Source: a virus. From it: a DNA stretch of 64,000 nt. Shown here in pieces: positions 11,234-60,500 of the stretch; the first letter of the stretch is position 1; each line of letters opens with the position of its first letter. Under the pieces are notes generated by a model, which worked only from the letters and a program-made list of their open reading frames with translations, ran no database searches and was not told the DNA's origin. The stretch covers positions 1-64,000 of the IMG/VR virus record IMGVR_UViG_3300043540_000321. The stretch is one strand, 5' to 3'. The position numbers were made by a program, and so were the translations under genes.

Positions 11234-12010
11234 ATGGCGATCGCTCGGAGGGTCAGCCTCCTTCTAATACTCTTCGCAGTCATCTCCGGTGGAGGCGCGG
11301 CGGTTAATAAAAAAGGGAGTAGTAAACCACAACCTCAGTTTGACCTCGCTGCAGCGATCGCCTCTTATATAGATAGGACTTACAAACCGAAAGGTTATCA
11401 GCTCCCCAGAGGAGAGAACCAGTATACAGTGGTGTACGTTGCGGGTATGAATGCCGACGGCACCTTGAACAACAACGAGCCGAATAGGTACAACGATCGG
11501 AGAATTCTGCTAACATTTGCTCAGGGTAAACCTCAAATTGCCGGGAACTGGCAGGCGACAGTCAGCCCAGGCTCAGTCTATGAAAATCCTCGTCTCGCCT
11601 ATACCCAGTTCGGACTTTTCCCCCAAGCCTACCGAATAGGCATACATGGGATGGTGTGTCCTCATGAAGCCTTGGTTCAGGTCAAGCCAATTATTGTGGC
11701 TCGAGGTCCAAACCAGCAAGGTGAGTATACCAACACCCGGATCGGGAAGAGGCGCGACGAAGGGGTGTTCGCTATCAACCAGCATGGTCCCTGTAAGGAC
11801 TCCGACACGGTTGATGGTTCGTCGGAAGGATGCTTAGTCGCTCGAAGAATGTCGGAGCATCGACAATTTATGTCTATGTTAAAGACAGATATTCGATATA
11901 AGACCAGTCCGGTCGGCCCGCCCATTCACTCAGGTGACCCTCCGTATCGTACGTTCGCCTGGGATCTCATAATTATTAGCGGGCAGAAACTTTTGGAGTC
12001 CACGAAGTAG
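11234..12010 (+). CDS. Exported L,D-transpeptidase-like (YkuD-type His/Cys) peptidoglycan enzyme
   Basis: Signal/TM leader from ATG 11234; VVYVAGMNADGTLNNNEPNRYNDRRI; INQHG..SSEGCLV catalytic-like motif. Confidence 0.55.
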   Translation: MAIARRVSLLLILFAVISGGGAAVNKKGSSKPQPQFDLAAAIASYIDRTYKPKGYQLPRGENQYTVVYVAGMNADGTLNNNEPNRYNDRRILLTFAQGKPQIAGNWQATVSPGSVYENPRLAYTQFGLFPQAYRIGIHGMVCPHEALVQVKPIIVARGPNQQGEYTNTRIGKRRDEGVFAINQHGPCKDSDTVDGSSEGCLVARRMSEHRQFMSMLKTDIRYKTSPVGPPIHSGDPPYRTFAWDLIIISGQKLLESTK

Positions 12011-12770: not shown

Positions 12771-14044
12771 ACCATGTTGAAACCCAATTTTGTTTTCGTG
12801 CTAGACACCAATCACAAACCGCTCACACCTTGCAAGCCTTCAATGGCGCGTAAGTTGCTGAAGGCTGGAAAAGCGGCGGTGTTTAGACGATTCCTGTTCA
12901 CCATCATCCTTAAAAAGGAGGTAGACGCTACGCCAGAACCGATTGAACTCAAATTAGATCCCGGTTCCAAAGTTACGGGAATCGCTCTCAAGCAAGGCAG
13001 TAAAGTTTTTTTTGGTGCAGAACTCACCCATCGCGGTCAAGCCATCAAAGCGAGTCTAGAATCACGCCGCTCATTGCGACGAGGTAGACGCGCTAGACAG
13101 ACTCGCTATCGTCAAGCCCGGTTTCTCAATCGGACTCGTCCTAAAGGTTGGTTAGCGCCTAGCCTTCAACATCGAGTCGAAACAACCCTAACTTGGGTGA
13201 ACAAATTCATCAAACTTGCACCCATCGGTTCCATCGTTCAAGAATTGGTACGCTTTGATTTACAGCAGGTTGAGAACCCTTGAAATCTCAGGGATTGAAT
13301 ATCAGCAAGGTGAACTCGCGGGGTATGAGGTCAGAGAATATCTGCTCAACAAGTGGGATAGAAAATGCGCTTACTGCGGTGCTGAAAACATTCCGCTTCA
13401 AGTGGAGCATATTCACCCAAAAGTCAAAGGTGGCTCTAACCGCATCTCTAATCTGTGTCTGGCTTGTGATGACTGCAATCAGAAAAAAGGCACTCAGGAC
13501 ATCAAAGCTTTTCTAGCCAAAAAGCCTGATCTTTTGAAACAGATTTTGAGTCAAGCAAAACGCCCTCTCAAAGATGCAGCGGCGGTCAATTCAACCCGAT
13601 GGGCATTGTTCAATCGACTGAAAGAAACAGGTCTACCTGTCAGTACGGGGTCAGGAGGTCTAACCAAGTTCAATCGGACTCGTCTAGAACTGCCTAAAAC
13701 TCACTGGCTAGATGCGGCTTGTGTCGGTCAAGTTAACAAGTTGGAAGTGTTGACTAATCAACCGTTACTGATTAAAGCAACGGGTCACGGGTCGCGTCAA
13801 AGGTGCCGCACTGACAAGTTTGACTTTCCCAGTCGATACGTGCCCCGATTCAAGTTTGTTCAAGGCTTTCAGACAGGCGACATTGTGAAAGCTATTGTCA
13901 CATCTGGCAAGAAAGTTGGTGAATATGTCGGACGGGTTGCGGTTCGTTCTAGCGGCTCGTTCAACATTTCCGACAAGTCGGGATTGGTTCAAGGCATCAG
14001 CTACAAATACTGCAAATCTATTCACAAAAAGGGCGGTTACTCGT
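12516..14044 (+). mobile_element. Non-autonomous IS200/IS605-superfamily IscB element
   Basis: Starts GTCAGGAACCCAGCCCTAAAGGACTGAGCTTG, then omegaRNA-like leader and iscB; no tnpA; boundaries inferred. Confidence 0.75.
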
Positions 14045-26913: not shown

Positions 26914-27293
26914 ACGAGCAAGAATGGATCGAGAGTTTTAAGCAATTTGGGCTAACCGGGCAGGATACCTCTGCTGAAGACACTCTTCTAAAATTATTTT
27001 CCGATATTGTCGCCATTACCTATAGGGGGTCAGAAGGGTCTAAAGAGCAGGCAATCAACACTGCGCTGAACATTGCGGAGGTTTTGCACGCTGAAGTAGA
27101 CCTGACGATGACTCGCTCATTTTTTGATGGGGTTGCCGAATGGGCGCAACTGCTTCAAGATCGGTTGCCCCAATTGAGCGGAAAACAGTGTACCGAGATT
27201 GTTATGCTACGACTTAGCTTACTACAAGAGCAGGCTCGTTCCCTCCTCTACGAATACTCAACTGACTTAAGAGGCAAAGACATCGATGTCTGA
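26910..27293 (+). CDS. Hypothetical protein
   Basis: Overlapping stop/start with both neighbours. Confidence 0.65.
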   Translation: MNEQEWIESFKQFGLTGQDTSAEDTLLKLFSDIVAITYRGSEGSKEQAINTALNIAEVLHAEVDLTMTRSFFDGVAEWAQLLQDRLPQLSGKQCTEIVMLRLSLLQEQARSLLYEYSTDLRGKDIDV

Positions 27294-28305
27294 AACAATG
27301 GAAGAGCTTCAGTCGAGGCTCAAGGACGAATTCGATATTGAATTCGGCGATTATTCTTATTTAGAAACGTTGCCTACTCGTTTACCGAACTTGGACCGGA
27401 TCATGGGGGGAGGAATCCCTCTCGGACGACAGTTAGAAATATTCGGACCGTCAGGTTCAGGTAAAACCACCCTCGCTTTGTATGTCATGAGCCTGGCGCA
27501 GGAGCGAGGGTGGCCGACGGCTTATTTAGATTATGAACATCGACTCGACCCCAATCGCGATGCAATCAAACGGGCGAAATGTCAGCCTAACTTTTTCTAT
27601 TTCGATAAAGTTAAAGACCGAGACTTCATCACCGCAGAGGATGGAGTCAACTTCTTAAGGGCATTTCTTCCTACTAAGGACGGAACTCCTCGAGTTGCCA
27701 TAATAGACTCTCTCGCCGCATTTAAGCCAAGGTGCTCCTTCGAACGAGACATCGGAGATTCAGAGCAGCCGGGTCTCCAGGCTCGGTTCATGAGTCAGTA
27801 CATGCCGATGATCGGAGGTATCGTCAAATACAACCGCAGTATTTTGATCTGGATCAACCAACTTCGAAACAAGATAGGTGGGTATGGTAACCCAGAGGTG
27901 ACTCCAGGCGGTATGGCCACTCCTTACTATCAGACTCTCCGACTCCGCATCTCCAGAACGGAGATTATTAAAAATGAGGAAGACGGAGGCATCCGTTCCC
28001 GAATAGAGCTCATTAAAAGTTCGACTTCTAGAAGTCACCAGAGCTGTGAGATTAGTATCCGAGACAGTGGCATTGACCTACGCTCTGCTTTGTTCGAGGA
28101 GCTGAAAGTTCGAGAAGTCATTAGGTTGGGTGGAAGTTACTATAACTTCGCTCCTCAATATAGTGAGCTGGCGCAATCTTTGGGACTGGAAGTTGACCCC
28201 AAGAAAGGGATGGCTCGAATCGGGCAGGGAGAGAAGTCCGTCATGAAACTTTTATCCGACTCGGATGTTTTTGATAAGCTGTATGAAACAGTTTTGAACA
28301 CTTAA
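27286..28305 (+). CDS. recA: RecA/UvsX-like recombinase
   Basis: LDRIMGGGIPLGR..EIFGPSGSGKT, IIDSLAA, GLQARFMSQ, WINQLRNKIG..GNPEVTPGG. Confidence 0.92.
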   Translation: MSETMEELQSRLKDEFDIEFGDYSYLETLPTRLPNLDRIMGGGIPLGRQLEIFGPSGSGKTTLALYVMSLAQERGWPTAYLDYEHRLDPNRDAIKRAKCQPNFFYFDKVKDRDFITAEDGVNFLRAFLPTKDGTPRVAIIDSLAAFKPRCSFERDIGDSEQPGLQARFMSQYMPMIGGIVKYNRSILIWINQLRNKIGGYGNPEVTPGGMATPYYQTLRLRISRTEIIKNEEDGGIRSRIELIKSSTSRSHQSCEISIRDSGIDLRSALFEELKVREVIRLGGSYYNFAPQYSELAQSLGLEVDPKKGMARIGQGEKSVMKLLSDSDVFDKLYETVLNT

Positions 28306-28309
28306 AAGT

Positions 28310-28627
28310 ATGGAGCTCAAACAAAGAATCCCTCCTGAAATCGCTCAACTGCCTCTGGAAAAGTTCTACGAACATGTCCTGGCAGCAGAGCGGAGAGCGA
28401 AGGAGGCCGTCGATATGTCTACGGAAATGGTTGAGTCAATCCTCCGCCAGAATCAAGAGGCCACCATGCGCTGGCAGGATGCTATGAAGCTCCGGTTGAT
28501 GGTCGAGGACTATATTACGTTTTTGCAATCACCGGACACCTCCGCTGAGTCTCAGACCACCTATCACTTCTCCTATACCGCCGACTCTACCCAGCAAATT
28601 CCTTACGGAAGTACAAGCGACGAATGA
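28310..28627 (+). CDS. Hypothetical protein
   Basis: 105-aa ORF within the operon. Confidence 0.6.
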   Translation: MELKQRIPPEIAQLPLEKFYEHVLAAERRAKEAVDMSTEMVESILRQNQEATMRWQDAMKLRLMVEDYITFLQSPDTSAESQTTYHFSYTADSTQQIPYGSTSDE

Positions 28628-29994
28628 TTGACTTTGTTTATTTGAAAGAGCCTGAGGAGTATCTTCGGGCTCTTTCTTACTTAGAACCCGAACCTGACCC
28701 AGCATGTGACGTAGAAACTCACGTCCTCCAGAAGTGGAGAGGTCGTGGTGGGTCTGCTCTTGACCCCCACACCGGTCGCATCAGTCTGCTGACTCTAAAG
28801 GGAAGGGGTACAGTGCCCCACATATTTGACATCCTCGAGCTGGAGAGACGGGATTACGATCGCCGTCCCATGTACGAGTACCTGCGGTCGCGGAAGAAAC
28901 TCCTTTTATTTCAGAGTCAATTTGACCTGAAGTTTCTCTTTCGTCACTACGGTGTGTTCCTCCGAAACGCCTGGGACGTTCGTCTCATGGCAAAATTAAT
29001 AGGGAACGCCACCGGTTCCAAATACGCCCGACAGATGGGACATACCCTTGCCGACGTGTCGCGGGATTGGTTGGATGTCCACGTCTTCGGTAAGGGCAGC
29101 GAGCAGGTATCGGACTGGTACCCTCGCCCTCTGACGCAAGAGAAGTTGCAGTACGCCGCCTCCGACGTAATGTACTTACACGACCTGCACGATATGATGC
29201 TCCCGGTCATCATCAATCCCCTCCCAGTCTCTCCTCTGAATCCCAACGGAGCAGACGATAAAAACTATGGGCTGGGGATGGCGAGGACGCTCGACCTGGA
29301 AATGAAAATGTGCTCCGTTGCCGCCGAGATGGAGTACAACGGGCTGCCGGTCTCGGCTGCTCTATTGGAAGACATCCAACGAGCCATAAAAGATGAAGAG
29401 ACCCTCTCTGGACGGCTGTACGAGGTAGCGTCGGAACTCTGTGAGATCTTAGGACTGCCAACCGAACCCTGTCTCTGGACGGAGGATCGGATTCCATCGG
29501 ACGCGGCGTTTAAGACGTTGAACAACCCTGTGAAGCTGAAGATTTTAATAAATCAGCACACCAGGCTGAACCTCGATAGCTCGCAGACTCAATTGCTGAC
29601 TCGACTGTTAGACCTGTTAGCTCAGATAGAAGAGAAGGGTGAACCGGACTTCGTCGATGATGATGAGCAGGCAGTCTACGGAACGATCGCTAACATCGAA
29701 GAGTCCGTGGCACTGGCGATGAGCAAAACCTGCTCGTTAATCGTGGAGTATAAAAAACTCCAGAAGTTATACTCGATGGACTTGCGATCGTATGTAAACC
29801 CTTGCACAGGTTGTATTCATAGCCATCTGGACATGTTGGGGGCGGCTACTGGACGCTCCAGTGGGTCAAACCCAAATCCTCAAAACATTTCCGCCCGGAC
29901 GTATATCGAGATCGAGCGTCCGTTTAATGATCTATTTCCCAGCTCAGCGAATTATGACCAACTCTTACCCGACTGGAACCCCTTCGCAGCCTAG
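28624..29994 (+). CDS. polA: Family A DNA polymerase, N-terminal subunit (3'-5' exonuclease, thumb, motif TGR..NQN)
   Basis: ExoI CDVETH, ExoII QFDLKFL, ExoIII YAASD; ends shortly after TGRSSGSNPNPQNI. Confidence 0.88.
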   Translation: MIDFVYLKEPEEYLRALSYLEPEPDPACDVETHVLQKWRGRGGSALDPHTGRISLLTLKGRGTVPHIFDILELERRDYDRRPMYEYLRSRKKLLLFQSQFDLKFLFRHYGVFLRNAWDVRLMAKLIGNATGSKYARQMGHTLADVSRDWLDVHVFGKGSEQVSDWYPRPLTQEKLQYAASDVMYLHDLHDMMLPVIINPLPVSPLNPNGADDKNYGLGMARTLDLEMKMCSVAAEMEYNGLPVSAALLEDIQRAIKDEETLSGRLYEVASELCEILGLPTEPCLWTEDRIPSDAAFKTLNNPVKLKILINQHTRLNLDSSQTQLLTRLLDLLAQIEEKGEPDFVDDDEQAVYGTIANIEESVALAMSKTCSLIVEYKKLQKLYSMDLRSYVNPCTGCIHSHLDMLGAATGRSSGSNPNPQNISARTYIEIERPFNDLFPSSANYDQLLPDWNPFAA

Positions 29995-30133
29995 CGACAT
30001 CGTCTGCGACCTGGGAGACCTAAAGTTACATCTCATGGACAAGATTCAACTTCTGACCCTAAAACGAGCATTAGCTCACCTGATTGAGAAAATCGACGCG
30101 GAGTTAGATAAACATGACACACCACATTCTTAA
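29954..30133 (+). CDS. Small hypothetical protein
   Basis: ATG at 29954, helical C-terminus; overlaps the next gene. Confidence 0.45.
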   Translation: MTNSYPTGTPSQPSDIVCDLGDLKLHLMDKIQLLTLKRALAHLIEKIDAELDKHDTPHS

Positions 30134-30422
30134 GACGCATCCCGAACCCTTTGAAGCCTTATGGAGCCGGGTGAAACCCTTTGAGTTCAGAAGAAACGAC
30201 AGAGATTTTCAGGTTGGCGACTCCTTTGTCTTGAAGGAGTTTGTGCCGGACCTGGTTCCAGATGAAATCGGCGGGTGCTTTACCGGACGGTCTATCTTTG
30301 GAACCATCCCTTATGTTCTGAAGGAAGGGTATGGAATCCCAGAGGGATACTGCATATTCACCGTCAAAGAAGTCGGTAGAACGCTTAGAGAACCACTTGG
30401 AGTCGATGAAACCTTTAATTAA
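30114..30422 (+). CDS. ASCH/DUF3850-like protein
   Basis: HILKTHPEPF..KPFEFRRNDRDFQVGD..LKEF. Confidence 0.8.
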   Translation: MTHHILKTHPEPFEALWSRVKPFEFRRNDRDFQVGDSFVLKEFVPDLVPDEIGGCFTGRSIFGTIPYVLKEGYGIPEGYCIFTVKEVGRTLREPLGVDETFN

Positions 30423-31194
30423 ATCAGCCGGCGGCAAAAGCTGGTTGGCTCCCAAAATTAAGCAGATTTATCTTGAACGGTTCGATGGATATCGAGTCGT
30501 CGAACCGTTCGCGGGTGGTGCGGCGGTGACGTTTGAGATACTGCCTAAACACGCTTTATTAAATGACGTCAACCAGGCAATTATTAATCTCTATACCTGG
30601 GTCTCTACAGGAATTCCCTTTAACCCAGAGTACTTTGTCTGTGAGAAAGACCATTTCTATAGGATGCGGCAGGAATTTAACAAGGGATTTATCAAGGGAG
30701 ACCCCTGGTCGCACAGGTCAGCTCAACTCTTCTACTTTTTGAATAAAACCTGCTTCAACGGCCTGACCCGGTTCAATGCTAAGGGAGAGTTTAACGTTCC
30801 TTTTGGCAAGTACAAGTCTGTGAACTATCGTCTGGACGAGCTGCCGTACTATGCCGGAGTGATGGGACGGTGGAGCTTCACCCAAATGCACTTTGCAGAT
30901 CTCCTGCTGGCAAACGGGCGTGAAGACGACTTCACTTACTGCGACCCACCTTACGACGATGGGTTTGTGCAGTACTCGAAAGACGGGTTCTCCTGGGAAG
31001 AGCAGGTTGAACTGGTCGAAAGGCTGAAGGTTCTACCCGGTCCAGTTATCGCATCAAACAAAGCCACCGATCGGATTCTCGACCTCTACGCCAATGCAGG
31101 GTTCGAGATTGAGTTGTTGGATGCTCCAAGAGCGATCAGTTGCAAGGGCGATCGCACGCCGGTGAGGGAAATGTTTGCCACGAGGAACCTGTGA
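30406..31194 (+). CDS. dam: Dam-like DNA adenine methyltransferase (D12 class)
   Basis: KSAGGKSWL, EPFAGGAAV, NDVN, NKTCFNGL.RFN..G.FNVPFG, YCDPPY. Confidence 0.92.
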   Translation: MKPLIKSAGGKSWLAPKIKQIYLERFDGYRVVEPFAGGAAVTFEILPKHALLNDVNQAIINLYTWVSTGIPFNPEYFVCEKDHFYRMRQEFNKGFIKGDPWSHRSAQLFYFLNKTCFNGLTRFNAKGEFNVPFGKYKSVNYRLDELPYYAGVMGRWSFTQMHFADLLLANGREDDFTYCDPPYDDGFVQYSKDGFSWEEQVELVERLKVLPGPVIASNKATDRILDLYANAGFEIELLDAPRAISCKGDRTPVREMFATRNL

Positions 31195-31433
31195 GTAAAA
31201 CCTTAGAAGACTTGTTAGTCAAAAAAAGTATGCCGGAGATTCTGGTTCTCTTTAGAGAGGCAGAGACTTATCGGGAGTCCGGCGGGTTGCCGGAGGATTC
31301 TAAGATCCGAGAGCTGGCGCACCAGATTTTCTATCCAGTTAACGCTCTTCAACTAACGGCTGTCTGCAATGAGATCTATCGACAACTGGCGATCGAGGCA
31401 GTCACCTACTTCAAGCGACAGTCCCAGGTATGA
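31191..31433 (+). CDS. Hypothetical protein
   Basis: GTGA overlap with the dam stop. Confidence 0.55.
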   Translation: MSKTLEDLLVKKSMPEILVLFREAETYRESGGLPEDSKIRELAHQIFYPVNALQLTAVCNEIYRQLAIEAVTYFKRQSQV

Positions 31434-31675
31434 GTAGAGGGTTCTCTAAACCGACCAAGTTTGAAATTATCCTCCTCGTAGCATTTGAGGAGGGAATCCT
31501 TCTTCTGCCGTACCACGCGGTCAGGAATTTTATGACTTCCAGCCAGACTCGCACGACTCTGGAGTCCTTAGAGAAAAGGGGCTGGGTTGTTAACGCATCT
31601 CCGTATCGCTTGACAGATAGAGGGAAGGAGGCTCGGAGTCGGTATGTCAACTCCAACAATAGACGCCGTCGTTAA
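31430..31675 (+). CDS. Small hypothetical protein, possible winged helix
   Basis: TLESLEKRGWV..YRLTDRGKE wing-like pattern. Confidence 0.5.
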   Translation: MSRGFSKPTKFEIILLVAFEEGILLLPYHAVRNFMTSSQTRTTLESLEKRGWVVNASPYRLTDRGKEARSRYVNSNNRRRR

Positions 31676-32651
31676 GATCGGTCTTCGGTCTCACGACGGC
31701 AAACCAAAGCCAGGTATTACTATGCGTCAGGCGTTTGTGGCTCCTGACGACTGGGCAGTATTAAGTTGCGACTACGGTAACCAAGAACTATACATTGCTG
31801 CCTTCGAGTCGAAAGATACGGCGATGTTGAAGGCGTTCAGTGACTCGAAGACTCTGCCTCTTCTAGATGCCTCTGGACAACCTATGTTCAAAGACGGCCA
31901 GCAGATCTTCTACCCAAACCCGCACGCGGATTTGCACTGTCTGACTGCCGTGTTTTGCTGTTTCCCGCGACTGTTTGAGGGAAGACCCGAGTATGAGTGG
32001 GTTCGCATCTCCAAAGATGAGACCCTGATCGTTCAGAAAGGGTGTGCCCGGGATTACGGGAAAAAGACAAACTTCGGAATCGCGTACATGCAGACCGCCC
32101 AAGCAATGGCGCAACTGAACTATGTGCGTGAGGAAGAGTGTGCTCAGTGGATTAAGGCTCACCAATCGCTCTATCCTGAATTTCATGCCTGGGCTCAGGA
32201 AAAGGCTGGGTTCTCGAATGCGAGAGGCTGGGTCGAGAACTCCCTGGGTCGAATCCGCTGGACGGCGGAAGATAACGCGAAGAAGGCTGGAGCATCCCCG
32301 GCCCGATCGGGTGTAAACCACTGCATCCAATCGATGGCAGCGGAGCAAGCTAAGCTCGCGCTGTGGAAAATCTCTGAGCGTCTTGAAAAAGAACCTCTGG
32401 CATTCCGACCCAAATTATCCATGCTCGTTCATGATGAGATCATCGTGATCGTTCCAGGAAAACTCATCTTGGATGAGACGAAGTGCATGTACGACGGTGT
32501 GACCTTTGTACCTGTCTATCGTCCAGACGAAGATGTTAAATACTGGGCTAAAGAACTCCAGACGTTAATGGAGGAGGCTCAAGCTGAGACCTTCAACTGG
32601 GAATTGCCGGGTAAAGCGGACCCTTCTACCTCCAGATTCTGGGCGCATTAG
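31644..32651 (+). CDS. polA: Family A DNA polymerase, C-terminal catalytic subunit
   Basis: MRQAFVAPDDWAVLSCDYGNQEL (motif A), RDYGKKTNFGIAY (motif B), LVHDEI (motif C). Confidence 0.9.
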   Translation: MSTPTIDAVVKIGLRSHDGKPKPGITMRQAFVAPDDWAVLSCDYGNQELYIAAFESKDTAMLKAFSDSKTLPLLDASGQPMFKDGQQIFYPNPHADLHCLTAVFCCFPRLFEGRPEYEWVRISKDETLIVQKGCARDYGKKTNFGIAYMQTAQAMAQLNYVREEECAQWIKAHQSLYPEFHAWAQEKAGFSNARGWVENSLGRIRWTAEDNAKKAGASPARSGVNHCIQSMAAEQAKLALWKISERLEKEPLAFRPKLSMLVHDEIIVIVPGKLILDETKCMYDGVTFVPVYRPDEDVKYWAKELQTLMEEAQAETFNWELPGKADPSTSRFWAH

Positions 32652-32730
32652 CCGTTTCTCCGTCCTTTCAAATGAGTACTTGAGGCTCTCCTTTAGTCGC
32701 AATACTGGAGGGAGAGCCTACTTCCTTTTT

Positions 32731-33570
32731 ATGTCTCCATCCACTTCTACTCCACAAAGTCCGCCAGCAGAGTCTGGAGTTAAACCTGTCCAAACCACCC
32801 AGGCTCAAAATCTAACAACCACTCAGGCACATCCGGAGAACAAAGTTACGACTGATATTAAAGAGACGTTGTCTTCGATCGAAGGCTACCTCATTCTTAT
32901 CGGTCTGTTGATTATTGCTGGGGCAATTCAGAGGTTTCTGATACCTTTGCTCCAAAGATGGCTAAGTCAACCGCTGCATCCGTTTAAGCACGACATGAAG
33001 ATAGCTCAGATGCTGAGCTTCCTCCTGGGACGGGCGGGTGAAGATGCCATTCGTATCGTCATGTACGAGTTCCACAACGGAGATATTACAGGGTCTGGTC
33101 GGCACTATAATCGAATCTCCATCACGAATGAAGAAGGGGTGCCTAAGGCTGCGCCTTTCTTCAAGGAGTACCAGAGTGCTCCAGTTGGGATTTTTAATAA
33201 ATCGATCGAGTCCTGTTTTAATAATGACCTGTTCAGGAACGAGGCCAATGTTCAGGACCTTGGAGAGCACGGAAAGATGCTTCAGGTCTATGGTGTAGTT
33301 CAGGTGGCTCAGTATCTCATCTACCAAGACCCTGTATACTACGGAATCCTGGAGATTCATTATGAGTCTGATGAATCTATTCCAGTATCCTTAAAGGAAG
33401 ATATGGAAGAGGTGGCGCTGCGGATCAGACATACCATGCAGACGGCAAACGCAAGTCTGTGGAATGCTATCTTTCAGCAATTCCGAAACACGTCTCTGCA
33501 ACAACAAGCCTCTTCTCTATCTAACGTTAACAACAGCAATATACCTCCACCTTCGTTCCCTCAGAAATGA
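32731..33570 (+). CDS. Single-TM protein with a GAF-like domain (possibly T4 holin T-like)
   Basis: One TM segment, then IVMYEFHNG..SITNE..GILEIHY GAF-like pattern. Confidence 0.45.
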   Translation: MSPSTSTPQSPPAESGVKPVQTTQAQNLTTTQAHPENKVTTDIKETLSSIEGYLILIGLLIIAGAIQRFLIPLLQRWLSQPLHPFKHDMKIAQMLSFLLGRAGEDAIRIVMYEFHNGDITGSGRHYNRISITNEEGVPKAAPFFKEYQSAPVGIFNKSIESCFNNDLFRNEANVQDLGEHGKMLQVYGVVQVAQYLIYQDPVYYGILEIHYESDESIPVSLKEDMEEVALRIRHTMQTANASLWNAIFQQFRNTSLQQQASSLSNVNNSNIPPPSFPQK

Positions 33571-34166
33571 TCGAAAAGTCGTTTGGTCGCCTATTCACTA
33601 TCCGGAAATGGGTTCGAGACCCTCAATGGATTCTCGACCATCATCCCCAGGTCTATCTTTCAAGTCAGATTGGAAAGATAGAGACCGCCCTGTACCTGTC
33701 CGAAGAGCAGACTGTTACCCTACAGGTATCCTCACACCGGGACTTGTTATTCGTGCTGGACTGCAACAGAGGTAATTACAGCCTGCGGATTCCAATCGGG
33801 AACCTCGTTTATTCAAACGAGACCTCGTCTGGGTTCCTCTATGGGATTTTCTCGGACATCGATCGCATTAACTACAATGCGAAAAGAGGGAAGGTAGCAA
33901 TAGCACCTAACTCTTTAGGGCCGGGACTACTCATCGTCTATGTTGTCGAACTGAACCTGTGGCAAAGGTCTCGAAAGAGTGCCTTTACTCGGCTGATGGA
34001 CAACTTACGGTATGAGGTCAACATGATCCTGAACCCGAAGCTGGCGGAAATCTTTCAGGAAAGGGATAGTTATCAGACGATGCTTTCCGAATTCAATCTA
34101 GGAGAGATTGAAAAGTTACCTCCGTTACATGACGACGGAGAGGACGACCTAAACTCACTTGCTTGA
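33567..34166 (+). CDS. Hypothetical protein
   Basis: ATGA overlap with the upstream gene; 199 aa. Confidence 0.65.
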   Translation: MIEKSFGRLFTIRKWVRDPQWILDHHPQVYLSSQIGKIETALYLSEEQTVTLQVSSHRDLLFVLDCNRGNYSLRIPIGNLVYSNETSSGFLYGIFSDIDRINYNAKRGKVAIAPNSLGPGLLIVYVVELNLWQRSRKSAFTRLMDNLRYEVNMILNPKLAEIFQERDSYQTMLSEFNLGEIEKLPPLHDDGEDDLNSLA

Positions 34167-34174
34167 TATGTTCG

Positions 34175-35500
34175 ATGACTATACGTTTCGCGCAAGCACT
34201 CAACCTTAAAGGCCTGTTGGCAAAGGTCTATAGTTATTCTCCAGATGAGATTTTGACCGCAACGAGTTGTGTGCTTTTAAGACAACTCGCATTTAATAAA
34301 ACCCAACTGACCTCTATAGAGCCTCGCCGAGCTATTTTTCGACGAGAGTTCATCCACCAAGGCGCAGATGAGGGAGGCATGGAAGGGATCGAGCTCCTGA
34401 TTGACCAGAAGGAGTTGAAAGAGCGTCTAGACAGATTGGTTGCTGGAAACACTGGGAGCTTAACACTCAAGACCGAGCGGGGTCGGCTGGTTCTAAAGGC
34501 TGACTATTACGTGTCGGCAAGCGGAGCTGAGCGCCAGCGGGCGAGCAGTACCATCCGTCAGTACCCTGGACCGACATCCGACTTTGGACCCCTGATTGAT
34601 TTTGAGGGAGACTCTATTGTTTCGGTGTCTGCAGACGAATTTAACCAGGCTGTCTTCCTCTTAGATTCCTTCGCAGGTCTTTCTAATGAGAAACCTTTCG
34701 AAGGGGATGCGGCAAACACCTTGGCCCTAGTCGAAATCGATCGCGACCGCCTGACGTTGTCTGCATCCTTCAAGTCCGCCTACTTAGCATACGCTCAACT
34801 ATCCATCCCTGTCTGCGCCAATAACTTGACCGCCCCTATGAAGTTCGCGATCGAGGGCCGGCAGCTCAAACGTCTGTCCGGACTGGGCGGCTCTAAAGAT
34901 TTGGTCGATGTCTACATCACAAAGGATGGAGACGATGAAGAGGCCGGAGAAGAGTGGGTCACTTTTGCAGGTCCAGCGGGGTCGACCAGTCTCAGAATGT
35001 ACCCATTGAATGTTCGTTTGCGACAGGATACCGTCTTGTTTAACGACCATCCGGACCTGAGCAGTTATGCTACCCGACTTCCTTCTATTGACGAGATGGT
35101 CTCGGCTGTGATTATTCAACAGCCTTCTAATTCCGACCCTCAGCAGGACCTACTCCTTATGGAGAAGTCTGGGCAGATGGTCGTTCTTCAATCTGGGAAA
35201 GTCGGTGACTTTGACCAGGCGGTCGCCCCTTTCGACCCAGTTAACTCTGAGGGTAGTTGGGCACCGGTACTGATCAACAGTAAGACGCTTCTGTCGTCTC
35301 TGAAACTGGTTAAGACCTACTTGGGCCGATTAAAAATTCAGTCCGCTAATGCCGTAATGAACCAGAAGATCTTAACCTTTAAGAAGGGAGGAAAGTCCTG
35401 GGTTCTCTACGTCAAGCCAGCGATGATGGATGGAATCGAACTCAATTTCCTTCTGCAATGTTCCCTAGCCACACCTGACCAAATCAACACAGACGAATAA
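34175..35500 (+). CDS. Putative beta sliding clamp (DnaN-like)
   Basis: N-terminus MTIRF..LKGLLAKV..CVLL..QLTS, later LLIDQKELKERL..LTL..RLVLKA..SDFGPL..VSADEFNQAV follows the DnaN pattern; about 440 aa. Confidence 0.55.
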   Translation: MTIRFAQALNLKGLLAKVYSYSPDEILTATSCVLLRQLAFNKTQLTSIEPRRAIFRREFIHQGADEGGMEGIELLIDQKELKERLDRLVAGNTGSLTLKTERGRLVLKADYYVSASGAERQRASSTIRQYPGPTSDFGPLIDFEGDSIVSVSADEFNQAVFLLDSFAGLSNEKPFEGDAANTLALVEIDRDRLTLSASFKSAYLAYAQLSIPVCANNLTAPMKFAIEGRQLKRLSGLGGSKDLVDVYITKDGDDEEAGEEWVTFAGPAGSTSLRMYPLNVRLRQDTVLFNDHPDLSSYATRLPSIDEMVSAVIIQQPSNSDPQQDLLLMEKSGQMVVLQSGKVGDFDQAVAPFDPVNSEGSWAPVLINSKTLLSSLKLVKTYLGRLKIQSANAVMNQKILTFKKGGKSWVLYVKPAMMDGIELNFLLQCSLATPDQINTDE

Positions 35501-51511: not shown

Positions 51512-54500
51512 TCAACCTACAGCAGTGATATAGTCACTTTGTTTCGGGAGCCCAGTCGCCGACTCCCACGATTTCAAATACGAGGTTTCGGTAGCCACTC
51601 GAATGACTGTCTTGTTGTCTCGCTGTTCGACTGTGGCGCGGACCTTCGCCTCTTTAATAATTCCATCCTGGGTCTTGTATTGATACTGAGTGTTGGGTCG
51701 AATAGCCACCGCTTGCCGCTTTAACTCATTCAGCCGTTGCTGAGCCGCCTTCACTTTATCTCGAGTGAACTGGACCACTTTTGCGGCGGTTGCGACCGGC
51801 GGGACTGTTGGGTTGGCGGCCAGGGCCAGCAGATGTCGGTCTACTGTTTGTGCCGCTGCCTTAAGTCGAGTCGTCTTCTCCGGCCGCTTCGGTTGATTCT
51901 CATTCGCTTTCTGGGCCGCCTGCCCTAAAGAGGGCTGTGTCGGTTTAGCATAACGAGAGAAGGCTCTCCAGTAGTACTGCAGAAGTTCGGATGCCCGACG
52001 AGTCGGCTGCCCGTAAGGAGCGTCGGGGAAGCTCGCCCAGACCGAGCGAAGCTTTCTCATCGCCACATTAATACGCCCAGCGTCGATGTCCGCCAAAGCT
52101 CCTTGCTGTTGAATCAGCCAGAGCGCGGCCTTATCCTGGCTCGCTGGAGAGAAGTCTTTCAGCCCCAAAGCTTTACGAGCATCATCCCAGGTGAACGACA
52201 TGAACTGATATCGTCCGGCCGCATCTGACCGGATACCACCGCCGCTCATTACAGTACGGGGATGGTCGGCGAAGTTCGAGAACCGACGCCCCGTGAACAT
52301 CACGTTGTAGTCCGCGCCTTCCGAGTAGCCAATCATATCGAGGAAGGCCCGGCGAGCCGCGCTGATGTTTGTCGCTCCCACGTTCCCCTTTCGACTTCCG
52401 AAGTCTCCCGAGACGAGAGCCTTCATGTATCGTTGCAGCAACGCTTCTGAAGTCTCCAGGTGAACGTGGACAGCCGTAGAGGTCTCGCCCGTACTCCCTT
52501 GGATACCCAATCGTTGCCCAAACCTGACCGTCTGTCCGGCCTTCACTTCAATGGTTTTGTTGTGCAGAACTCGAGTGACCGCGCCGGAGGCATCCTGGAT
52601 TTTAATCATGCCGAGTTCCCCTACGAACCCAGCGAAAATGACCTTACCTTCTACCGGAGAGGGTACTGGGACGTTAGTGCTACTCCCCCTGTTCAATTGG
52701 ATGTCGACGACTCGCTGCCCGTTATCGAGATAAGATTTCAGCTTCCCGTGGTCCATCCGATAGCGGACGTATCCCCCCGTCCCCTCCCAGTGAGGACGTA
52801 ATTCTTCGGCACTGCGGGCGATACCTTCTCCATACCGGCGACCTCCGAGAGACCAAACGGTGTAAGGAGTCAAACGCCCCACTCCGTCGACCGAGTCGGT
52901 GAAGGCGGAAGACACTTGGTCTTTAAGGTCAACGAGAGCATTCGAGAGACCTTCTCTCACCTTCGCGGTTGTGTTCATCAATCCTTTCGCTACATTATTG
53001 AGCTTGGTGAGAGCGTCTCGGGCGAACTTCTCGGCGTTCCACCACAGGTTCTTAAACCCATCTCCGACCGATCGCAGCAGCCCCATCAATCCAGTGGATG
53101 CCGGAGGTTCTTTCTTCCGGATCCAGCTATCCCGAGAGGGTTGTGCCCGAATGATTTTCTGTATCTCAGGGTTGGTCAAACCCATGCTTGCCTCATGGAC
53201 GGGCATATAGGATAGACCCTCGCGCTTGGTGTGCCGGAGGTCTTTGGTTCCAAGGAAACTACTGAAGGAACCAGCCAGGCTACCAATTAATAAACCAGCA
53301 CCAATTCCAACGCCAGCCAGCAGCAGGATCGGAGCGGAGACAATACCGGCGGCAACCAACCCGGCAGCAGCAAGACCTCCCAGGACGGCACCTCCGATTC
53401 CACCTAATAGCTGGTTACGGACAACGGTTTTGGCCCCGACTCGGCGGGCGAACGCCTCTGAGCCGAGCTTTTCTCCTATCTTCGAGAAGGTGTAGTCACC
53501 GATGAGGCTACCAGCAATGGCTGCGATCGGACCCGCAAGAGAACCTCCGATGATGCCCCCTCCGAGTGACCCAATACCACCGGTGGTTCTTCGCAGAGCG
53601 ACCTTGTACTCAACCTCACTCCTCGCTGTCTGTGCTTTTTGAACCCCGCTACCAATCCGCCAGATATCGATGATCGGTCCGGCAAATCGCAGAACGTGTC
53701 CGGCCCCTCGAGCTAAAAACCCAGCCGGTTTGGCGAACTTCGCGGCGAGTTCTCCAACCTCAGGTGCAGACTTTCCAAAAACTCTCAGGAAGCGGGCTTG
53801 TGCGGCCTCGCTTGCTCTTGTCAAAGCTCCGGCGTACGTTCGAGAAGCAGAAGTCGCTATTCGGTCCATCAAGGAAGCTGAACCCGATAGCACTCGAACG
53901 TTTGCCGCCGCAAGGTAGCGCTCAGTCAAAGTAGAGACTCGAAATCCAATAGCCTGCCCAGCCTCCTTCGCCAGAGCCGCCTGCTTCAAACCCGGTTCGA
54001 GAATATCCTCAAGGATTGGAACAGCTCCGTAGTCCTTCGCCTCATATCTCATGCGGGCGACTCGTACGGCCTCTTCGGCTCCGCCGACCTGACCGAGGAT
54101 AGATCCGGAGATGTCCCCCAGAACGCCTCCAGAGAAGACCCCCAAAATAGACCCGACCAGGGAACCTTTAGCTCCACCCATCTGGGCGTACGCTTCTTCT
54201 ACATCTGTCAGACTCGAAGTTTTGTTCAGTCGAAGTGCTTTAAGAGCTCCTCCTCCTAAAGTAGTCAGGTCAACGACGGGGGCGATCGCACTGAGAATCC
54301 CCTCTCGGTAGCCGTGTGTCAGGACATACTCGGACATCTTCGGAGCCAGCCGACTCATACGGAGCACAACCTGATCAAGACCTTTCTCCACAGCCTGTCC
54401 AATGAAATGGTTCGCTCGGGTTAGAACTCGTTTCAGCCACCCGAATCCTTTTATTAAATGACTGGGTAGGAGACGAAACTTTTGAGCAATCCCTTCCATG

Positions 54501-57500
54501 TGGTCCAGCGCCCAAGTTGAGACTCGACCGGGGATTGTCTTTGCCGTCTCATAGGCTCCTCGGATCTGATCGAGTGCTTCCTGGCGAAACTTAATGTTCC
54601 AACTGAACCCTTCGAATAGACTTCGCCCAAAGTCCCGAGCCATGCTAAAAGTCTGCCGAATCTGGTCGATAGCCTCCTGTCTGAACTTAATGTTCCAACT
54701 AAATCCATCAAAGAGCCGTCGAGTTAATCCAAGTAGGCCTGTTGGACGGTTCAAAAATTGGAAGGCGCGACGAATCTGGTCGACGGCTTCCGACCGGAAC
54801 TTAATGTTCCAGCTAAACCCGTCAAATAGATGGCGACTTACGTTGAGCATACTTCCAGCCCAATCGCTCGCCCCACTCAACAGCCCTCCTATGAATCGCT
54901 GCGACACGTTAAAAGCTCTTCGGATCTGACTAACAGCTCCTGAGCGAAACTTGATAGACCAGTCCCACCCTTCAAATAAACCTTTGACAAATTGACCCGA
55001 TGCTCGGAAACCTCGACCAATCTGGTCAATCGCATCCTGTCGGAAACGGACTTTCCAGTCCCATCCCTCGAACAGACTGCCCACAAAACTTCGAGAGGTC
55101 TGGAAGGCTCGCCCAATCTGGTTCAGCGCCTCCTGACGAAACTGAACGTTCCAACTGAACCCTTCAAATAATTTTTTAATAAAACCAGTCCCGCCCTGAA
55201 ACAGGTGGAGGTTACTGACCCAACTCCAACTCTCGCTGAGGTACTGAGCCCCTCTCTGCAACATCAACCTAGATGTCTGATACGCCTGTCTCATCTGACG
55301 TATCGCCTCAGGTCGAAGACGAATGTTCCAGTCCCATCCCTGAAATAGACCATGCGCGAAGCGACGAGTCGCATCAAAGGCCCGATGAACTTGTGCAACA
55401 GCATCCGGTCGAAGGCGGATGTTCCAGTCCCATCCTTTTAATAAAAATTGAGTCCCTGAAGCAATAGCCGAGAGTCCAGAGGAGATAACACCCGTCAGGA
55501 CTGGAAGGGCAGAGGCTGCGATCGCCGTCAGTTGACTAACCACTCGTGTTATCTTCGGGCCCGCCTCTGCCAGGTAGCGGAGGGTCTTACTGACTAATGG
55601 GCGGAGAGCCTGCCTAACCCTCCCTGTCAGGAATTGACCGACTGTAGCCTCCTTCTCAAACGATCGGTTCAAGCGAATGTACACAGAGGAAGACTGCATC
55701 GGGTTGTAGACATAATTTCCGTTGTCCAGATCTTTCAGGTCTTGCGCGGAGATCCAGGAGCTCAACCCAAAGAACCCAAACCTCGAGAGTACGCCGACAG
55801 TCAGCCCCGCTGCTAGTCCAGTCCACCAGCGCCCAGAGAAGAACGCGGCAAAATTACCTGCGATCGAGCCAAACATTACACCCATCTGCTCGTCTCTTGC
55901 TTCAGCTAACTCCCGCTGAGCTTGCAGCCGGTTAAACGATCCTCGAATTTTGGCCTGCTGGATAGTCTGAACAGTAGTCTCGAATTTATGAACCGAGTGG
56001 ATGCCCAGCATGAAGTCCAGAGCGACGAAAGCATTCTCTGCGATCGAACCCAGTGACCGGAATCTCTGCTGTTCAGTCAGCAGTCCTCTAAGAGTCTCAC
56101 CCGACCGAGTTTGGATGTCTTCTATCATTCCTCCAATCAGAGGGCGTCCTCTATATCGAACAGGCGGACGAAGACCCTCTTGTGGAGGAAGTGTCTCCAT
56201 CAAAATGCTGTACCGATGAGCAATATCATCTATCCTCGTCTCTCTATCCAACGTGTTGGTCAGACCTTCAAACTGGTCTCGATGAGTCGCTGAGAATGCG
56301 CCCAGAGCGCGGACGTTAGCCGAGATCTCATCCCTCAGCATCTCCTGAAGAATGTCCTGCCCAAACTTAAATTCGTCGAGCGTTCGCATCGCCGAGGACT
56401 TACTGACTCGTTCAACGATGTCCTGCAGCCGGTTGGTCTCAGTTCCCGTTTCATAAGCGATGACCTGCAAGTCATCAATGTTCAGTTTAGGTAGCGTCCT
56501 TTGAAACTCGATCGCGTGGGACATCTCATGGAACGCATCGAAGATAGCTCGGGTCACAGCACTGGGGCGAACGAACTTACCCGCTCTCATCCGACCCAGA
56601 ACACTCTCGGATGCCTTAGACAGGGTTACTGAACCTTCCTGCAGGTTGTACATACCTTCTATCTGGAACGGAGACCCGTCAAAAGATACGGGCGTGCCCG
56701 ACAATGCCGTTCGATTCAATCCCAGGCCCGTTTGAAACTCTTCTTTCAGAGAGACAACGGACTCACGAGCGGCCTGCGATATCGTTGAGCTGACTCGTCC
56801 CCTAAATAGAAGGGAGAAGAGGTCAGGTAACGCTTGGAAGAAACTGAGAGTCTTTTTAACTGAGCTACGGATCATCCGCTGGTTCCGTTGCACCCAATCA
56901 TAAGAGTCCATTGTCATGCCGGTCAGAGAGAGCTGCGTCGTTGGACCGGTGAACAACCCAAATGCCGAACTCAACGCAAAGTTAGCGGCTCCACGCATAG
57001 CTGCGGCGCGAAGACCCTGAGCCCGAGCGATAGATAGTAATTTTGGGAGTTGGGTCAGCGTAGAAAGACTACCGACCAGAGCGGACTGCTTCAGATAGTT
57101 CAGGACTGGGTTCTTGTCTTTACGGCGGTAGTCTCCGAGGGCTAAGTTCTCACCCGCCCAGCCTCCTACAAAACTCCCCAAAGCAGAAGCAATTAAAGCA
57201 GGAAGTGGGCGTTCGACCAAAGACAGAGCAGCAGCTCCGGCGGTGTATCCACCCAACGACATGCCCACCTCCCGGTAGGTCTCTCGATACTCTTTGTAAC
57301 TGCTTCCTCGTCCGAGAGAAGAAAGTCGATAGTCCGTCTGTTGAGCTATCAAGAGCTCCAGACGACTTAAGAGGATCGGCCCGATCGGAACTTTGGGAAG
57401 TGAGGTCATTAGAGTCCCTATGCCTCGGTCTAACCCTCGCCGCATTCCAAATGAGAGAACCTTTTTCAGAGGTTCCATCATCTCTTGGGAAAGACCTATT

Positions 57501-60500
57501 AGGCGACGCAGATATCGATCTAGATTGTCCATCGGGTAATCAGCGCGGGCCGGAATATTATTAATAAATCTAAGAACTGGGTCTGCTTTTGCCCTCGCAG
57601 TCCCGACAGACTCAGAGACGGGTCTGGCAAAAGAGAGGATGCCGGACAGCCAAGAGGCTGCGCGAGTAACCCCACCTACGATGCGGGGTGCGATCGCCTG
57701 GCGTAGACGTGAGGCTGCTCCACGTCCCAATTGAAGGAGAGAAGACATACCTTCCAACCCCCACAGACCCAGGTCGAGAGCGCGGTCAGTTAATGAGTGA
57801 GGGATGGAGAAGGCAGGTAGGTTAATTCTGAACCCTTTAAGCTTCTCCAGAAACGCCAGCTCAGGCAAACTCGGTAGTGGTATGGACCGACTCAGCCTTC
57901 TTCCAGCTCGAAGAGTTGCTGCCAGCAGATTTCGACGAAGTTGTTGGAGAGGGACTGCTAGACGACTGACGGCTCCAGAGAAGGGTTGGATTCTTGCATT
58001 AATAAAACGAGTGGCGTCGTCATGCCAGTCTCCAATAGTATTTCGAACAGTGGAGATGTCCTTCTGTAACTCTTCAAAGGGATTGAGATTTGAGACCGAT
58101 CTGTAGGCTCGAAGAGTTGCCGCCCCGCCGTAAATATGACTCAGGAGGGACAGGTCTACCGGGGGTGGTTGGCGAGCGATCGCCTGTGTCGTCACCAAAA
58201 CGTTGAAAAGAGCCTGCCGACGTTCAAGAGCCATCATCAGCGTACGACTAACGCGAGTTCTATGCAGCGCGAAGTCAGACCAGACTCGCCCACCTGTGCC
58301 GTGGAAATACTTCTTGTAGGCGAGCTTCTCAGATTCGCTGTCCTCAAATCCGATATAGTCTCCGTAGACCAGTTGTTTCTCAATCATCGGGTTGATCCGC
58401 ATGGCGGACTGAAGCGCTTCGACCTGTCGCTTCTTCATCACCATCGTGATGTTGCCCGACATAAAAGGAGACTGCCCGCCGAGAGAAGACTCCGTTCCTT
58501 CGTTAAAACTGAAGTTGCTATAAACGCTCTGAGGCAAGAAGAAACCCTTGACCATTTGAATCGGAATCGGGTCTCTCACCATGCCGAAGGTCTGGTCTTG
58601 AATCAGCGGCCCTGAGATATTTTCAGTAAAGGCTCTCACCGGAGCCGTCAGTATCCGCCCCAGAAAACTGAAGGGGGCCGCCAGGAGATTACCGAGCTGA
58701 CGAACTGGACGCTCAAGTCCCAGCGGTCTGAACACAGAGGCAACTGTCTTAACCGGGAATGCCAGTAGATTCCCCAATCCCTCGACAAGGTTTGTTTCGA
58801 CGGAACGGATAGACCCGGACTTTTGCTTCAGAGCATCAAATGCGACCAGTCCTCCAACAGCCGCCGCCATCGCTAACAAAGGACTGGCCCCAATTCCCAT
58901 TGCTACCTCGGCCAACCCGACGGCAGTCGCCCAGGAAAAACTACTCGATACAAACTGTTCGCCCGCCTTCTGCCTCAGATAAGTCGACTGGGTAGCTCCA
59001 CCCATCATCACACCGGCTGCTTCGATCACCTCATAGGCTGAGCGACCGTTGGCTGTCCACCAGGCGACTCCCGATGCTAACCCTTTGCCAGCCTTTAATG
59101 TCGTCGTGACAGCACCTTCACTCCAGGGACGCTGAACATAGTCGCCCATCTGTCTCCGGACCTCGGACGAGAGCCCCACTTCTGCTCTTGGAGTCCGTTT
59201 GACCGCTCGGATGGTATTTTCAGTGTCTAACCGAGCAATTCGTCCGTAGGCAGACCGCTCTGCTCTCAGGTCATACGTCCCAACGATCGGGCGTTGCAGT
59301 TTGAGAAGAAGGTGTTGAAAGGCTTCGTTCTGCTCCAACGCGACGTTCAATTTCAACGTCGTCTTGAAGGAGTCTATGCCAACAGCCGCCTCTTCATCCA
59401 ATCGTGTCAGCACATCTGTAATGGCTGACTGAGAGAACCCTTCCATCTCTTGTGTGAACAGGTCGATAGCCTGGTTAAGATGCTGGTCACCCGCCCCGAT
59501 GATCGATTGGAAAAGGGTAGTGCCTGGGACAACTTCAACTCGCATCGACTTGTCGATGTGCTTCTGAATGTCCTCAACAAATTGTTGCTTGAACAACTCC
59601 TTCTGGACCTCATCAAGCGGACCCTCGGAGGCTAACTTCACGAGGGAGGCTAACCGCTTGGAGTAGTTCTCTGTGAAAATCTGGTTCAGACCGCTGTGTA
59701 AGCTTCGGTAAGCTTCCGTAATACCGACCGTGATACTCAGCGGAGTTGCTCCGGTGCGGGTAGCTGTCTCCTCAATATCCAAAGGCAACCGGTATAAACC
59801 ACCCAGCGGGTTGAGCTGATCGACCTGGAATGCTGCGGGTCGCCCACTGGGTAGTCTACCTGAAGTGAAAGCGTACCGGGTCAGAGGAGAAACGGGTCTG
59901 CCTCGATTGAGTCGACTCTTGTGAGTCAGCTCCTTCAATTCGTTGTAGGTCTGGGACGCGGCCAGTCCTCCGATCACGCCCACTCCGGCGTAGGCTGCCG
60001 ACGCCAACAGGACAAGTTGGATCGGTATCGTGAGGTACGAGTACCCTTTCAGGGAACTAATGTCGTACCCAATCCGGAGGGCACTGAACCCTTGATTAAC
60101 CGCCCGATGCTTCCACTCCGTTGTGCCGTACCAGGACATGATACTCAGCTCTGGGTCAAGAGCTTTCATTGCTCCTGACTCTAGGTTGTTCTGCTGAATG
60201 GTGAACGTGACATTTTTCAAGAAGCCCATCGGGCGGTATCCGGTGGGAGGTAGTCTGTACCCGGGTATTGCCGAATGTCCCATCAGCCCGAAAGTCATAC
60301 CCTCTTTCATCAGGTCAAACATCAGTTCAGAAGGACGCTGGGCGGCCAGATGTTGCATCAGGAAGTGCCGATACTTAACCGCCCGGATCAGTCCAGTCGA
60401 CTGGCGAGCGGCTTCCAGGTCGTAGCCGGTCAAGTCTCGAATCTCCATGTGCTTCTGCCGAGGCGTAGCTCCACGAACGAGGGCGAGAGCTTCGGCTACA

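Follow-up and report, generated by a model that had tools for sequence, protein, structure and literature searches.

Phage replicases from two genes

The replicase of some T4-like phages, a family B DNA polymerase, occurs split into gp43A and gp43B, and the Aeh1 arrangement nrdA-a/mobE/nrdA-b is a case of 'genes in pieces'. The subject here is a comparable division of a family A DNA polymerase (PolA) in the window, a stretch of 64,000 nucleotides that forms the first 64 kb of the 195,211-bp IMG/VR virus record IMGVR_UViG_3300043540_000321, rated complete by CheckV. The enzyme is encoded there by two separate open reading frames (ORFs), an N-half and a C-half. Together they very probably specify a naturally split, two-chain replicase in which the cut passes through the polymerase domain itself.

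Splits of PolA have been described in other phages. In the T7-like cyanophages S-SBP1 and S-TIP37 (clade B) the exonuclease is separated from the polymerase, a division called the first seen in PolAs in a 2023 reclassification (PMC10201439) and found also in PMC12695635 and bioRxiv 10.1101/325100. LUZ24-like phages carry a 'DNA polymerase part I' and a 'part II' with ~2 kb and ten small ORFs between them (PMC3890496). The likeness to the window lies in a family A phage replicase that comes from two genes and would be assembled without splicing. The place of the cut differs: in S-SBP1 and the LUZ24-like phages it is the exonuclease/polymerase boundary, whereas in the window it comes ~230 residues later, between motifs 2 and A of the polymerase domain, and one catalytic domain would thereby be built from two chains. 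No description of a split of PolA between motif 2 and motif A was found in the open-access literature, where the described family A splits are of the exonuclease/polymerase type only.

Outside family A, DNAP-N and DNAP-C of PhiKZ constitute a split family B polymerase that forms a stable complex with a cryoEM structure (PMC13648687). Both this system and gp43A/gp43B resemble the window in that a catalytic polymerase is divided between two polypeptides, but the polymerase family, fold topology and break points are different. Dassa et al. 2009 (PMC2677866) reported 'fractured genes', in which split inteins go together with a free-standing homing endonuclease. There, as in Aeh1, a replication gene of phage-like DNA is cut in two with foreign gene(s) between the parts. 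Unlike these, the window has neither intein halves nor an endonuclease gene in the gap.

The nearest counterpart is already in published genomes, those of the Microcystis phages Ma-LMM01 and MaMV, unrecognised as one enzyme. The likeness comprises the same break residues and the same gene order with a small ORF between the halves, in cyanophages of about 160-195 kb. Ma-LMM01 differs from the window in that its halves are only ~120 bp apart, its intervening gene gp179 is unrelated to the winged-helix gene described below, and there is no Dam/ASCH cassette. In the portions of two papers that deal with it, the Ma-LMM01 pair is treated as an exonuclease plus a polymerase and not as one split polymerase (PMC3201878, PMC5780444). 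Likewise, the passage in which Kazlauskas and Venclovas list a PolA, a polIII-beta homologue and a clamp loader for Ma-LMM01 leaves the split unmentioned (PMC3201878).

Anatomy of the two halves

The N-half (456 amino acids, aa) and the C-half (335 aa) lie on the same strand with a gap of 1,649 bp (Table 1). The N-half matches PF01612 (exonuclease, E 1.2e-14) and positions 29-136 of PF00476, and the C-half matches PF00476. When the genome was searched in six frames, the N-half covered PF00476 positions 28-137 and the C-half positions 138-183 plus 206-344; the two halves are contiguous, since the positions run on from 137 to 138. Coverage of PHROG 17 behaves similarly (positions 674-990 from the N-half and 989-1232 from the C-half), and alignment to Klentaq takes the N-half up to chain residue 298 and the C-half from 299 onwards. 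Because profile and Klentaq coverage abut there, the break can be placed between ..PNxQN-I-x-x-RT (motif 2) and the strand ..IRxAF that precedes the motif A aspartate.

The family A motifs are all present in canonical order, divided over the two ORFs: TGR/motif 2, A (DYxxxE), B (RxxxKxxxFxxxY) and C (HDE). The exonuclease motifs Exo I (DxE), Exo II and Exo III (YxxxD) are found in the N-half. The exonuclease domain ends near residue 195 of this half, whereas the break comes only at residue 456, past PF00476 position 137. From ..PNPQNI to the N-half stop there are 34 aa, and from the C-half start to RQAF 27 aa. The first-pass annotation of the window, made from the letters and a list of ORFs, had put these distances at about 35 and 26 and had described a PolA split into two genes 1.65 kb apart, with an ASCH-like gene, dam and three small ORFs in the gap. 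All of this is borne out by the ORFs as read and by the profile matches. From the N-half through the C-half, the genes are all on one strand, their stops and starts overlapping or nearly touching. No PolB, Pol III alpha or further PolA was recognised in the complete 195-kb genome by six-frame and profile searches.

Table 1. Genes at and around the split polymerase of the window, and spacing of the halves in related loci
Feature	Position or locus	Strand	Description	Profile matches
RecA/UvsX-like recombinase	27286..28305	+	Conserved neighbour upstream of the N-half	PF00154 E 1.5e-40, phrog_97
105-aa ORF	28310..28627	+	Stop overlaps N-half start (ATGA); small ORF at same position in relatives
PolA N-half	28624..29994	+	3'-5' exonuclease (Exo I-III), thumb, palm up to TGR..PNPQNI-SART, then 30-aa tail	PF01612 + PF00476
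32-aa ORF	30035..30133	+	Read from sequence; stop overlaps ASCH gene start
DUF3850/ASCH-like gene	30114..30422	+	Inserted cassette	PF12961 E 1.5e-19, phrog_986
Dam-type N6-adenine DNA methyltransferase	30406..31194	+	Inserted cassette	PF02086 E 1.9e-41, phrog_56
Small ORF, 67-80 aa	31191..31433 (start GTG 31191 or ATG 31230)	+		No Pfam or PHROG match
81-aa predicted winged-helix protein	31430..31675	+	Overlaps C-half start by 32 nt; conserved companion of the C-half
PolA C-half	31644..32651	+	Motif A (D43, E48), fingers/motif B (R136, K140, F144, Y148), motif 6 (Q229), motif C (H263, D264, E265)	PF00476
Distance between halves	L011, L012, L006		About 0.3-0.4 kb
Distance between halves	L016		About 0.6 kb
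Distance between halves	Window		1.65 kb
Distance between halves	L010		About 1.9 kb
Distance between halves	G006 (contig of L014)	Same strand	About 47 kb

Conservation of the cut

Among isolated phages, tblastn matches to the N-half were limited to cyanophages (12 records), the best being Ma-LMM01 and MaMV. In Ma-LMM01 the matches correspond to two genes, gp180 ('3'-5' exonuclease', 427 aa) and gp178 ('DNA polymerase', 320 aa), with gp179 (51 aa) between them. The gp180 protein ends ~17 residues past NAQQIS, and gp178 starts 8 residues ahead of RFAL, which aligns with RQAF. Since these ends align at the same residues, the break of Ma-LMM01 is the break of the window, in proteins that are ~25% identical to the window halves. 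Expression of gp178 and gp180 falls in the same middle-gene class of this cultured lytic phage (PMC5780444).

The same picture is obtained with uncultured material. About 50 N-half homologues of 446-507 aa, detected in a word-index search, all terminate at the same place. A HMMER search of 1.84 billion cluster representatives with the C-half gave 45 matches at E<1e-30. The majority are stand-alone proteins, 290-350 aa long and starting within a few tens of residues before RQAF. The halves are encoded separately in all nine related contigs of uncultured viruses that were examined (98-217 kb). Residues D43, E48, R136, K140, Q229, H263 and D264 are invariant across 35 stand-alone C-halves, and the exonuclease residues D29, E31, Y177 and D181 in 18 N-halves; both halves have kept their catalytic residues, as had been noted for the window. 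A single-protein scan of genome contigs returned no relative, and hence no host genome or prophage copy was identified.

The spacing of the halves, by contrast with the cut itself, varies from 0.3 kb to 47 kb (Table 1) and the genes in the gap differ, which rules out cis-splicing. Judged by these alignments, the same cut is inherited across related phages from the window to Ma-LMM01. The split itself is old, and the 1.65-kb gap of the window phage is secondary.

Position of the cut in the fold

Eight members of the clade are fused proteins of 698-1,028 aa. Both motifs could be located in seven of these, with 45-55 residues separating N.QQ from the motif A aspartate, as against ~30 residues in Taq; the clade therefore has an insertion of ~20 residues at the break. 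One natural fused homologue, P0067, was used as a proxy for the assembled enzyme and modelled with AlphaFold2 from 114 aligned sequences (fused, split and canonical). The model (pLDDT 89.9, pTM 0.91) is that of an ordinary PolA, with a TM of 0.81 to the Klenow fragment, normalised by the Klenow chain. In it, the insertion is formed by a strand at 425-429 (VRVWL), a loop at 430-443 and a second strand at 444-448.

The N-tail of the window (RT-YIEIE-RPF..) aligns with the first of these strands, and the beginning of the C-half (GKPKPGITM-RQAF) with the second strand and the part following it. The break is thus located in the connecting loop, as the two new ends align with the strands that flank it. 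There are ~29 extra residues at the new termini of the window proteins, and the motif LFPSSANY..L.PDW.P of the N-tail is conserved among the closest relatives.

Fused and split forms

A maximum-likelihood tree of the C-half region was computed from 44 split, 8 fused and 10 canonical rows. The clade is separated from the canonical PolAs with an SH-aLRT support of 96, and within it the fused forms are scattered and interleaved with split ones. At least four switches between the two forms are required by branches with good support; split P0177, for instance, is sister to fused P0186 with support 99. A tree that holds all split forms together is rejected by the approximately unbiased (AU) test at p = 0.0007, with a quick-type tree and a group that was named after the tree had been seen. 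The switches may represent repeated fissions, re-fusions or an exchange of alleles through recombination.

A two-chain polymerase and its alternatives

The best reading of these data is a working two-chain PolA, because the catalytic residues are invariant and the genome contains no other recognisable polymerase. That this is the replicase of the phage we regard as very likely, going by the genes. The first chain would contribute the exonuclease for proofreading, the thumb and the palm as far as motif 2, and the second chain the remaining palm with all catalytic carboxylates (motifs A and C) plus the fingers (motif B). The chains would be translated separately and then be assembled post-translationally into the ordinary PolA fold, with neither RNA nor protein splicing taking part. 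The break would be in a surface loop that is ~20 residues longer in the clade than in Pol I, each flanking strand of the loop coming from a different chain and being probably paired with the other across the interface. A cassette of DUF3850/ASCH, Dam and small ORFs would have been inserted between the N-half and the winged-helix gene to give the 1.65-kb gap, and the conserved small winged-helix gene would be translationally coupled to the C-half. A two-subunit PolA had already been proposed in the first-pass annotation. The proposal gains from a cut that is conserved as far as Ma-LMM01 at ~25% identity, from the invariant catalytic residues, from the lack of another polymerase and from the 47-kb separation of the halves in G006.

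Some points weigh against this reading. Assembly and activity of the enzyme are what we infer from the two genes. The start codon of the C-half is uncertain: ATG 31644 has AGGAGG 12 nt upstream, and ATG 31724 (M27) is an alternative. The N-terminal head of the C-half is poorly conserved, so that a dedicated docking extension on this side is not supported. Finally, the pairing of the two strands as a hairpin, across the subunit interface in the split enzyme, is a prediction read from the secondary-structure summary of the model and not from its coordinates. The earlier idea that the terminal extensions form the interface thus finds partial support only: the break-adjacent residues correspond to the two strands flanking the loop in the fused model, and the N-tail is conserved among the closest relatives, but the head of the C-half is not.

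Four alternatives have to be considered. The gap could be an intron, or RNA trans-splicing could join the halves into one full-length PolA; phage polymerase genes are classic intron hosts, and group I introns are abundant in this very gene of the relatives, both in motifs A and B and downstream of motif C. Yet an Rfam search of 27500-33500 gave no family, group I and II introns included, at E<=1, although four relatives yielded introns when searched in this way, with RF00028 scoring 25-82 bits in L006, L009 and L013. Moreover, the gap is made up of five co-oriented, tightly packed genes including an ordinary Dam and an ASCH gene, the tail of the N-half is coding sequence that the closest relatives have conserved, the halves of G006 lie 47 kb from each other, and the break falls at the same residue irrespective of gap content. 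Splicing of RNA is therefore exceedingly unlikely. Ligation or clasping of the halves by a split intein, or by a dead intein remnant, might be thought of because mini-inteins (PF14890/PF07591) are present in N-half homologues only ~15 residues upstream of the break. The Hint domains of these longer homologues were considered as a split intein at the break and rejected, since they are contiguous mini-inteins inside TGR(L)S/xxPNLQ and the host proteins still end at the usual break. In the window halves there is no Hint/intein Pfam match (PF14890 being recorded for the intein-bearing homologues), and their termini, read directly, have neither Cys/Ser-1 nor HN plus nucleophile. Tail and head together amount to ~60 residues, and the fused linker to 27-45, too short for a Hint fold. 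No Hint, HNH, GIY-YIG, LAGLIDADG or VSR match was obtained in the gap genes with Pfam and PHROG. The intein explanation is thus highly improbable, although a little less so than an intron. Both negative searches are backed by positive controls, as such elements were recognised at other sites in the relatives. The absence of an intron or intein, which the first-pass annotation had asserted along with that of a homing endonuclease in the gap, accordingly holds for the window phage; it does not extend to the family, whose members carry both kinds of element elsewhere in the gene.

Interrupted genes in metagenomic contigs are often artefacts, and the pair might accordingly be an assembly error or a decaying pseudogene in a phage that uses the host polymerase. 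This is the least credible of the alternatives: the same architecture recurs in ten independent assemblies and in sequenced isolates (the Ma-LMM01 and MaMV phages), catalytic residues are invariant across ~25-50% sequence identity, both ORFs are intact, and both halves are expressed in Ma-LMM01. The two genes might instead yield independent products, the N-half a free proofreading or repair exonuclease and the C-half a minimal polymerase with some other partner. The GenBank annotation of gp180 as '3'-5' exonuclease' and the exonuclease/polymerase splits known in T7-like cyanophages (PMC10201439) speak for this. However, the N-half continues past its exonuclease domain for ~230 residues that belong to the polymerase domain (thumb, motifs 1 and 2), the C-half lacks a thumb and on established PolA structure would be unable to hold primer-template DNA alone, and the halves co-occur in every genome examined. 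Independent products are very improbable, if the least so among the four.

On the reading of a two-chain polymerase, the cut goes through the polymerase domain itself, putting thumb and motif 2 on one chain and the catalytic carboxylates with the fingers on the other, and has remained stable across a wide cyanophage clade, the laboratory model Ma-LMM01 among its members. The annotation of gp180 would have to be corrected, this protein being more than an exonuclease. The pair would offer a natural system for studying the assembly of a Klenow-type active site from two chains. The interleaved fused and split relatives make the clade a tractable one in which to follow gene fission or fusion recurring at a single loop, and this loop is a candidate permissive site for the engineering of split PolAs.

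Introns and inteins of relatives

Group I intron sites in the C-half of relatives are located at motif A (DYAG/QEL in L013, L015 and G006), at motif B (L006 and L009, directly after NFG) and, in motif C, following VHD. The RF00028 matches (28-82 bits) are at L006:10157-10401, L009:9928-10678 and 11638-11831, and L013:11011-11248 and 13019-13307. Several of these introns carry endonuclease-like ORFs; the C-half of the window is intron-free. Two intervening sequences, each with a LAGLIDADG-type ORF, divide the C-half at L018 (G006:C1:39777-43406, minus strand) into three exons, and the winged-helix gene precedes this C-half.

Mini-inteins of ~150 aa occupy the TGR(L)S/xxPNLQ site in the N-half homologues P0017, P0025, P0033, P0035, P0039, P0040 and P0043-P0045. 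A longer intein is found at the N-half TGR site in L013:7968-10376 (802-aa ORF). In the same locus, a 614-aa C-half ORF (L013:11236-13080) contains an in-frame intein with a LAGLIDADG-like segment at motif B (..ARKSAK/C..).

A probable winged-helix companion gene

The 81-aa ORF that overlaps the start of the C-half is more than a passenger of the gap. Homologues of it lie between the halves in eight related loci, and in most relatives they adjoin or overlap the C-half start. In G006, the homologue is directly upstream of the C-half and overlaps its start, though the N-half is 47 kb off. L010 shows a different spacing, with ~1.5 kb between the winged-helix gene and the C-half (L010:9574-11131) that contains short ORFs only and has no Rfam match. 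The first-pass annotation had called all five gap genes unrelated, which does not apply to the 81-aa ORF, a conserved companion of the C-half.

Sub-threshold matches to winged-helix Pfam families (PF24409, PF14947) recur in eight of nine members of the 81-aa family. The AlphaFold2 model of the protein (pLDDT 74.7) has a TM of 0.6-0.68 to MarR, PadR and SarZ folds, including ST1710, the best Foldseek E being just 0.03. The predicted fold is a three-helix bundle with a beta-hairpin wing, MarR/PadR-like, and DNA binding is putative. No match to the protein was obtained by tblastn among isolated phages. Kinship with gp179 of Ma-LMM01 (51 aa) was considered, and the comparison showed none.

It is tempting to regard the winged-helix protein as a dedicated third component of the split enzyme, acting for instance in its assembly, in DNA tethering or in autoregulation, because its gene adjoins or overlaps the C-half start in most relatives and stays with the C-half despite the 47-kb separation. 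Combined with the notion that the break loop is a recurrent hot spot of fission and fusion, with at least four switches between one chain and two, this makes a joint proposal that we consider rather unlikely and put forward as speculation.

Gap genes and neighbours

ASCH and Dam have no match at the PolA locus of any relative, and the cassette 30114-31433, perhaps together with the 32-aa ORF, is accordingly taken as a lineage-specific insertion. By sequence comparison it covers three or four of the five gap genes (DUF3850/ASCH, Dam and small ORFs). Elsewhere in five related genomes, ASCH gave no match (in a search that had no positive control) and Dam a single partial match in one of them, away from the PolA locus. 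Dam is 37-39% identical to Dam/Dmt of Synechococcus phages and P1; we place its probable start at M26 of the listed ORF. The small ORF at 31191..31433 was not found in the related loci, and the 32-aa ORF does not significantly resemble the small ORF that L006 has in the corresponding position. Flanking repeats around the cassette did not exceed chance. Promoter- and terminator-like sites around the gap and the cassette are no commoner than in shuffled sequence, and no terminator follows a gene end.

Upstream, a RecA homologue lies within 8 kb of the N-half in eight of nine related loci and in the Microcoleus phage My-WqHQDG (tblastn); L015 gave no tblastn match. In the closest relative, the RecA/UvsX homologue is one 690-aa ORF (L006:5534-7606) with two RecA-similar blocks ~350 codons apart, a separation which suggests that it may hold an intein. 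The window gene, unlike that of L006, is uninterrupted. Downstream of the C-half, a 445-aa ORF at 34163-35500 has no Pfam or PHROG match and is conserved in L006 (37% identity). Ma-LMM01 gp176, at the equivalent place, is called a polIII-beta homologue by Kazlauskas and Venclovas (PMC3201878). Towards its end, the window contains a giant ORF of more than 4,150 aa on the minus strand (51512-63985), which runs off the window end.

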